Assembly (NCBI RefSeq): GCF_003334305.1
Contig: NZ_QOWS01000023.1
DNA from: Escherichia coli
GTDB taxonomy: Bacteria; Pseudomonadota; Gammaproteobacteria; Enterobacterales; Enterobacteriaceae
DNA: 64,000 bases
Direction: 5' to 3' (one strand)
Made by a program: the position numbers and the translations under genes. The stretch's first letter is position 1; each line of letters opens with the position of its first letter. Shown here in pieces: positions 36,399 to 36,643 of this stretch. The notes beneath the pieces are model-generated. The model was not told the DNA's origin. It ran no database searches and worked only from the letters and a program-made list of their open reading frames with translations.

Positions 36399-36560
36399 AT
36401 GGAATTTTCGTTTTCACCCAAACTTCTTGTTGTTGCTGTCGCCGCCGCTCTTCCTCTCATGGCCAGCGCAGCAGATACCCCGTCAACTGCCACCGCACGC
36501 AAAGGCTTTGCCGGATACGATCACCCAAACCAGTATCCACAGAACGCTGCAATTTATTGA
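36399..36560 (+). pseudogene. aslA: probable 5' remnant of arylsulfatase gene aslA (53 codons, signal peptide then premature stop)
   Basis: ATG-initiated [53 protein letters not shown]; sits where aslA is in K-12 (convergent with aslB, divergent from glmZ), but only ~160 bp precede the aslB 3' end. Confidence 0.45.
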
Positions 36561-36578
36561 ATTTGCACGATCATGTAG

Positions 36579-36608
36579 GCCGGATAAGGCGTTTACGCCG
36601 CATCCGGC
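36579..36608. repeat. REP element
   Basis: gccggataaggcgtttacgccgcatccggc between the aslA remnant and the aslB stop. Confidence 0.55.
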
Positions 36609-36643
36609 AATCAACCGCAGGCGGCCACAAAATGGCCGCTTTT

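Follow-up and report, generated by a model that had tools for sequence, protein, structure and literature searches.

A common aslA-null allele of Escherichia coli attributed to a single REP-associated deletion of 1,578 bp

The aslA-Null Allele and Its Distribution

Between the small RNA (sRNA) gene glmZ and the maturase gene aslB, the 64,000-nt stretch of Escherichia coli DNA studied here (contig NZ_QOWS01000023.1; hereafter the window) carries only a 53-codon open reading frame (ORF) where K-12 has aslA (b3801). This ORF is the pseudogene remnant of aslA, and the common aslA-null allele to which it belongs was very probably created by one 1,578-bp deletion, directed by a cluster of repetitive extragenic palindromic (REP) elements. 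K-12 aslA is arylsulfatase-like and figures in VFDB-type screens as an invasion factor of K1 strains. Window coordinates refer to the whole 64,000 nt, and features are positioned on the given strand.

The deletion allele is widespread. A survey covered 5,426 complete E. coli genomes. A match to the aslA body (the part of the locus query at K-12 nt 191-1671) was present in 3,698 of them, and each of three junction-spanning queries detected the deletion joint in 1,729. The body-positive and joint-positive sets are essentially complementary, which means that nearly every genome without aslA has this one deletion. No copy of the body was found elsewhere, either in the window (tblastn) or in the ~1,728 complete genomes without it. 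The first-pass annotation of the window, which had noticed the loss and proposed a survey of aslA integrity, had therefore described an allele that is not peculiar to this strain.

Labelled carriers include Shiga toxin-producing E. coli (STEC) of serogroups O26, O111, O103, and O121, which we place in phylogroup B1, and ATCC 8739, which we place in phylogroup A. Intact aslA is present in K-12, BL21, O157:H7, sequence type (ST) 131, and ATCC 25922. The ST131 (B2) and O157 (E) lineages are taken to be early-branching, and because full-length aslA stands at the same site in both, the short form is the derived state. The window itself has the B1-type haplotype; between its aslB and the alleles of O26, O111, and O121 there are 0-1 synonymous and 1-3 nonsynonymous changes. 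Published gene surveys point the same way, with aslA "missing" in ST155, ST58, and ST156 (B1), ST410 (C), and ST101 (PMC8844930), and absent in 16/16 B1 isolates (PMC7796664).

Extent of the Deletion and Its Breakpoints

The first-pass annotation had read the locus as an ATG-initiated, signal-peptide-like ORF representing the AslA N-terminus, and this is borne out by alignment. The ORF lies at 36399-36560 (+), exactly as quoted there, and is divergent from glmZ (35768-35974, -) and convergent with aslB (36644-37879, -). When K-12 AslA was compared with the whole window by tblastn, the only significant match was that of residues 1-46, which align to 36399-36536 (97.8% identity, E = 2.5e-16). 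A full-length aslA nearby, which the annotation had named as a refutation of its reading, was thus not found. Codons 1-46 are identical to K-12 AslA at 45/46 amino acids, signal peptide included, the sole difference being at residue 9 (L in the window, R in K-12). The last seven codons (PQNAAIY) and the stop come from DNA that was once the linker between two REPs, so that the proposed 53-codon 5' remnant is indeed a remnant of aslA, but with only 46 of its 53 codons derived from that gene.

Homology to the K-12-type locus (L002) runs to window position 36537 and resumes at 36539. Against the O157:H7 locus (L005), the one with the aslA-aslB spacer (167 nt) that best resembles the right flank of the window, 1,579 nt are gone and one base (C, 36538) stands at the joint, giving a net loss of 1,578 bp. 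The deleted segment comprises aslA nt 140-1656, which begins at the second base of codon 47 and takes in the stop codon, together with 62 nt downstream that include the first REP (REP1). The 3' 92% of the gene is lost in this way, and the deletion extends into the bacterial interspersed mosaic element (BIME) between aslA and aslB. A deletion of ~1.5 kb had been correctly anticipated; it is not, however, internal to aslA. The parts of the locus are as follows, with a vertical bar here and below marking a breakpoint or cleavage position.

35768..35974, - strand: glmZ sRNA gene, intact (Rfam RF00083, 218.4 bits, gathering score 60, full-length model 1-214)
35802-35773, - strand: glmZ terminator hairpin
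35975..36398: glmZ-aslA intergenic region, retained, presumed site of the aslA promoter
36387-36390, + strand: Shine-Dalgarno sequence GGAG, 5' of the remnant ORF
36399..36560, + strand: the whole 53-codon ORF (pseudogene remnant), with ATG start
36399..36537, + strand: aslA-derived DNA, codons 1-46 and the first base of codon 47
about 36399-36470, + strand: signal peptide of the remnant (...PLMASA, cut, AD), followed by 22 mature residues
36506..36537, + strand: REP-like stretch within the aslA coding sequence, ending at the left breakpoint, where intact alleles read TATC|T
36538, + strand: junction base C, polymorphic among carriers
36539..36574, + strand: former REP1-REP2 linker of the aslA-aslB BIME, collinear with L002 from 6388 onward and L005 from 3529 onward
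36558-36560, + strand: stop codon TGA of the remnant ORF, within the former linker, which also gives codons QNAAIY
36575..36609, + strand: REP2, the retained REP, GTAG followed by an imperfect palindrome
36619..36647, + strand: terminator-like hairpin (36619-36641) and T run in aslA orientation, overlapping the aslB stop codon
36644..37879, - strand: aslB, intact, encoding a 411-aa anaerobic sulfatase-maturing radical S-adenosylmethionine (SAM) enzyme

As the annotation had stated, aslB is an intact ORF and the glmZ-aslA intergenic region is retained, with window 35730-36537 being 99.3% identical to K-12; sigma-70-like matches in the intergenic region are weak ones only. A REP between the ORF and the aslB stop had also been seen correctly and corresponds to REP2. 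As to the check proposed there, whether this element sits at the deletion junction, the answer is negative: the retained REP2 lies 36 nt downstream of the joint and it is the 3' foot of the deleted REP1 that forms the right breakpoint.

In intact alleles the BIME consists of REP1 (ending CTAC), a 36-nt linker, and REP2 (starting GTAG), the two REPs being inverted, and in the window only the linker and REP2 are left. The left breakpoint in intact aslA is TATC|TGG (longer context CCAGTATC|TGGTT), and the right breakpoint is AGCC|TACAG in 5/5 intact alleles with the two-REP cluster, in all of which both parental breakpoints are C|T dinucleotides. REP2 has the hallmarks of a REP, namely GTAG, an imperfect palindrome, and dispersed high copy number. 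Queries containing 36575-36610 had a median of 27-28 places per genome, and those containing only part of REP2 (to 36600) had a median of 1. Its DNA hairpin is predicted at -12.2 kcal/mol (z = -3.13), and REP1 is also hairpin-forming.

The left breakpoint is itself REP-like. Its last 32 nt (CTTTGCCGGATACGATCACCCAAACCAGTATC) agree in register, at 19/32 positions, with the REP1 32-mer that has TATC as its end; the matches include a 16-mer at 15/16 and CTTTGCCGGATACGAT against CTTTGCCGGATGCGAT. Only 22 of 220,864 pairs of aslA and intergenic 32-mers match as well, a background of about 1e-4. Judged by its sequence, aslA holds a REP-like stretch, which the deletion joined to a real REP.

Junction Variants and Number of Origins

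Three forms of the joint were observed. The window type, TATC-C-ACAG, occurs in about 1,725 genomes, TATC-T-ACAG in three (EcPF16, KFu022, and Z1323PEC0010), and TATC-CCCC-ACAG (C5) in one, HH97. No genome in the survey has a C run of intermediate length (C3, C4) between the window type and HH97, and a slippage series leading to HH97 is thus unsupported. The same joint occurs on several flanking haplotypes, which compare with intact alleles as follows.

HH97: junction C5; closest intact allele K-12; left 1,700 nt, 7 differences, the nearest 869 nt from the joint; right 1,650 nt, 0 differences
Z1323PEC0010: junction T; closest intact allele 13C1065T; left 1,700 nt, 2 differences; right 1,650 nt, 0 differences
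B1-type (window, O26, O121): junction C; no close intact allele among the five sampled; left at least 17 differences; right at least 33 differences

On the right side, HH97 has 0 differences from intact K-12 even over 2,421 nt. The haplotype of EcPF16 and KFu022, with the T junction, is that of ATCC 8739 and 22AR0118, with the C junction. There are two alternatives: either one old deletion moved between haplotypes in very short recombination patches, or deletion recurred at the same two bonds. Such short patches are feasible because informative single nucleotide polymorphisms (SNPs) come as close to the joint as about 85-145 nt.

Several points weigh against a single REP-directed deletion. One breakpoint pair has three junctions, and the flanks of HH97 and Z1323PEC0010 are nearly identical to those of intact alleles, a pattern which, if there was a single ancient origin, calls for recombination patches that are very short. 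Neither parent templates the base C (36538) of the majority junction in register, so that no simple one-step model accounts for it. In addition, the phylogroup assignments are based on serotype labels, general background, and two papers, and not on a tree.

One further variant adjoins the left breakpoint. In strain 13C1065T (L004 about 1940-1950), aslA has its intact length but is shifted out of frame (+1) by one additional A (AACCA[A]GTATC), which lies only 5 nt upstream of the breakpoint. This may be coincidence, a sequencing error, or the mark of a fragile site.

How the Deletion May Have Arisen

The position of the right end at the 3' foot of REP1, and of the left end at the close of the REP-like stretch in aslA, suggests that the REP cluster directed the deletion. 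We favor a REP-associated break-and-join or template switch that would have taken place once, long ago; the allele would then have been passed on by descent within B1/C and would have entered part of phylogroup A by recombination.

Within this general scheme, a purely illegitimate recombination, either enzyme-independent or linked to gyrase, could have occurred once, with the junction variants being later point or indel mutations, and for this account we see an even balance of probability. Replication might have stalled at the REP hairpins and switched template from the aslA REP-like stretch to REP1, using the 15/16-nt match as an anchor, or gyrase might have cleaved the BIME. The 32-nt in-register partial homology described above, which ends at both TATC motifs, argues for the first route, as do the hairpin-forming REP1 and REP2 and the BIME-dependent polymerase stalling sites noted elsewhere (PMC3333891). 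The second route is consistent with in vivo gyrase cleavage of BIME-2 (as cited in PMC8266576). That a single junction sequence makes up about 99.7% of carriers also fits one event. However, in-register TATC microhomology predicts the joint TATC-CAGCCTACAG, which was found in no genome, and microhomology at the observed joint does not exceed 2 nt (CT). HH97 and Z1323PEC0010, with odd junctions on intact-like flanks, are left unexplained.

Two candidate precursors were also tried and rejected. A parental REP1 shorter by 5 nt (GCCTA) would turn the C junction into a simple TATC microhomology; no genome has it, the best match (94.3%) amounting to a 5-nt gap. An intermediate carrier with the simple TATC-CAGCCTACAG junction was likewise not found in any genome, and the HH97 singleton emerged from the same search.

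REPs were reportedly described by Shyamala and colleagues in 1990 as join-points of tandem duplications in Salmonella. The aslA deletion shares with those rearrangements a REP end-point, its other end being REP-like; the Salmonella cases, however, are duplications between true REPs, whereas the aslA case is a deletion with one partner within coding sequence.

A more specific but rather unlikely alternative involves TnpA-REP, the REP-associated tyrosine transposase (RAYT). Working on the + strand REP2, the enzyme would have cut single-stranded DNA (ssDNA) at TATC|TGG and AGCC|TACA, linked the 3'-OH of the left side with the 5' end of the right side, and excised the 1,578-nt segment in the manner of IS200/IS605 insertion sequences (IS), recurrence included. 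Its primary product would be TATC-T-ACAG, and C and CCCC would be later changes that destroyed the re-cleavable C|T. In vitro, the C|T dinucleotide is indispensable for ssDNA cleavage by TnpA-REP, the enzyme can cut C|T sites over 400 nt away from a BIME provided that a GTAG REP is present in cis, and it catalyzes strand transfer (PMC3333891). Known sites include the strong GGCC|TACA of inverted REPs (iREP-II) and the weak GACC|TACA (PMC3333891). Several features of the locus agree with this. There is a C|T at both parental breakpoints, and the right site, at the 3' foot of an iREP, reads AGCC|TACA and so fits the NGCC|TACA pattern of iREP-II; the GTAG of REP2 lies in cis on the same strand, 36 nt away. 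The predicted joint TATC-T-ACAG, with a loss of exactly 1,578 nt, was found exactly in three genomes when it was searched for, and HH97 and Z1323PEC0010 have the flank pattern expected of recent independent events.

Against this, the TnpA-REP account was formed after the junction had been seen. About 1,725 of the 1,729 carriers, the window among them, have C and not the predicted T, and a C-to-T SNP acquired later in a single sub-lineage of phylogroup A could account for the T variant. Between the left site and the BIME there are 1.58 kb, and this site is a poor fit to the type I consensus TGCC|TGAT (5/8 positions). Literature searches found no report of a chromosomal deletion driven by TnpA-REP in vivo, and short recombination patches could also explain the shared flanks. 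Compared with TnpA-REP and IS200/IS605 Y1 excision as described by Ton-Hoang et al. (2012; PMC3333891), the aslA deletion therefore agrees in its C|T ends, iREP-II site, cis GTAG REP, and three-genome joint, but differs in that the enzyme's activity is known in vitro only, in the C of the window junction, and in a left site 1.6 kb off with weak consensus likeness. The fullest version, in which the aslA deletion is an in vivo footprint of TnpA-REP left more than once, old in B1 and recent in HH97 and Z1323PEC0010, with the joint then mutated to an uncleavable form, appears improbable.

The 53-Codon Reading Frame

The remnant shares with K-12 aslA its locus between glmZ and aslB, the start codon, the Shine-Dalgarno sequence, the first 46 codons, and the upstream region; AslA residues 47-551 are missing. 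It is not a chance ORF, for thousands of genomes have an aslA 5' end to which it is orthologous. What has been lost includes the Pfam sulfatase domain (PF00884, residues 86-418 of K-12 AslA) and the Ser-type formylglycine motif SSPTRATILTG, which starts at residue 136. Neither the (C/S)-x-P-x-R-x4-TG motif nor the catalytic domain that identify the sulfatase family is present in the remnant, and the ORF matched no family in an NCBIfam profile search. The glmZ-aslA-aslB synteny and the N-terminus with its signal peptide are thus marks of descent from aslA, not of a working enzyme, and we infer that arylsulfatase cannot be made from this allele.

Automated annotation has reached a similar view. 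The NCBI Prokaryotic Genome Annotation Pipeline (PGAP) calls the 138-nt aslA-derived segment a pseudogene ("arylsulfatase, incomplete, missing C-terminus"), and in some genomes it is labelled "hypothetical protein." The RefSeq/PGAP pseudogenes AC073K_RS22545, I3U_RS33480 (O26), and I3O_RS28640 (O111) are identical to the window in the 138-nt segment and the junction.

It could be argued that the 53-codon ORF has become a small gene with a function of its own, encoding a signal peptide and a periplasmic peptide of ~29 aa, which has been kept because it is useful. The locus preserves the upstream region together with the GGAG and ATG, a signal peptide that looks plausible (AXA cleavage motif), and a terminator, and the ORF is open in 11/11 carriers fetched, with the +3-nt variant of HH97 remaining in frame (54 aa). 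An open ORF is, however, expected from descent alone. The tail PQNAAIY comes from a REP linker and the product has no protein-family match, the amino acid polymorphisms F3I, K8R, and L9R segregate in carriers and in intact alleles alike, and strain PM4-5 has an IS1A between glmZ and the remnant. Furthermore, aslA has been lost by other routes too (P377, SW071611, and 13C1065T), which argues for loss of function and not gain. We consider a functional small gene very improbable; the ORF would be a non-functional by-product of the deletion, not a gene.

The remaining alternative, that the short form is an assembly artefact or an ancestral state which later received an aslA insertion, has nothing in its favor other than one form being shorter and is effectively refuted by the identical junction in 1,729 independent complete genomes, by the 46 in-frame AslA codons with signal peptide in the remnant, and by the intact form at the same locus in B2, E, and other lineages.

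What Is Already Known and What May Be New

The aslA remnant as such is already known, being an annotated RefSeq pseudogene and implicit in virulence-gene surveys as absence from B1/C. A literature search for the deletion junction returned only presence/absence reports of aslA. As far as our literature searches show, there is no published description of the junction at base level, of its three variants, or of how it coincides with TnpA-REP sites, and we offer these points as a lead and not as a result.

The deletion bears on how aslA is read as a virulence marker. Invasive isolates have all been said to "have acquired AslA" (PMC11879602), and aslA has been associated with B2 and with mortality (PMC11565901). 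Where a survey treats aslA as an acquired factor, what it really records is that one old 1,578-bp deletion is absent. As the aslA polymorphism is a phylogroup-tied loss, links of aslA to invasiveness or mortality would largely be phylogroup markers. If the TnpA-REP account were true, REP clusters and RAYT would be an agent of recurrent, site-specific gene loss. With breakpoints at TnpA-REP sites and three junction variants, the locus provides a cheap natural test case for the reshaping of chromosomes by RAYT in vivo.

aslB, the Retained Maturase

AslB is an equivalog-level anaerobic sulfatase-maturing enzyme (anSME) in NCBIfam (TIGR03942, 519 bits against a cut-off of 349), with a SPASM domain (TIGR04085) at residues 282-371 and the radical-SAM motif CNLNCDYC at residues 21-28. 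The gene is intact in 11/11 carriers fetched. Klebsiella has an atsA/atsB-type pair that consists of a Ser-type sulfatase and a radical-SAM maturase of the anSME kind. The asl genes resemble this pair in the Ser-type S-x-P-x-R of AslA and the equivalog-level anSME assignment of AslB; unlike it, the window has a maturase without its substrate gene, and the asl genes are convergent and do not form an operon.

The aslB promoter is bound by RcsB-P/GadE, and in an hns background the loss of aslB causes a slight drop in glutamate-dependent acid resistance (PMC2984483). It appears that aslB survives because it is convergent with aslA, has its own regulated promoter, and probably does work beyond the maturation of AslA. 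An intact aslB without a neighboring substrate gene fits earlier hints of other AslB roles (PMC2984483). As regards relaxed selection, the 0-1 synonymous and 1-3 nonsynonymous differences among B1-type carriers are too few to judge. Deeper comparisons give a ratio of nonsynonymous to synonymous divergence (dN/dS) of about 0.07-0.13, which mostly reflects polymorphism older than or independent of the deletion.

Compared with L002-L009, aslB is unusually divergent and mosaic, with blocks of SNPs that switch affinity along the gene. Synonymous divergence reaches a maximum of 0.28 (against ST131) and is 0.12 between two deletion carriers. The mosaic pattern of the sequence suggests frequent recombination at the locus. 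Where the ends of aslA and aslB meet, the common form of the hairpin is GGCGGCCACAAAATGGCCGC followed by TTTTTT, as in the window, O157, and most carriers. In K-12-type alleles (L002 about 6470-6490) the hairpin is 9 nt shorter (GGCGGCCGCCGATTTCT) and has no clean stem or T run.

Other Lesions and Neighboring Variation

The 1,578-bp deletion is not the only lesion of aslA. SW071611 has an IS1 inside the gene, 13C1065T has the frameshift described above, and P377 (L016 2996-3433) has a 1,163-bp deletion that removes aslA nt 61-1223 (L002 4730-5892) and leaves the 3' 438 nt. The P377 lesion was considered as a second REP-linked event and rejected; it lies between ordinary short direct repeats (TCTC/CTCTTCC) and is unrelated. 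Several independent lesions of this kind point to aslA being dispensable.

PM4-5 (L015), a deletion carrier, is 100% identical to the window over the compared part, on the hemY/glmZ side of its insertion. The IS1A, with a 9-bp target duplication, lies in the glmZ-aslA intergenic region at window ~36016-36024, about 45 nt from the glmZ 5' end, and might affect the glmZ promoter.

Variation was also seen on both sides of the locus. The C-terminal end of HemX (hemX, window 33274-34521, +) is a long Pro-Ala repeat (PAPAPA...) of strain-variable length. HemX has 415 aa in the window, and hemX measures 1,182 nt in K-12 and 1,194, 1,200, 1,212, 1,218, 1,224, and 1,242 nt in other loci; the repeat looks like a hypervariable coding microsatellite. 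Downstream of aslB, window 38029-38462 holds four tRNA genes, for which the annotation of the near-identical locus L001 gives Pro-Leu-His-Arg, and O157:H7 (L005 5135-5447) has a second tRNA-Leu copy in this cluster. In ST131, homology to the window begins only at about 35765, and an extra 196-aa hypothetical ORF (L007 591-1181), absent from the window, lies between hemY and glmZ. Other genomes whose window match also begins at query position 36 probably carry the same extra hemY-glmZ ORF.

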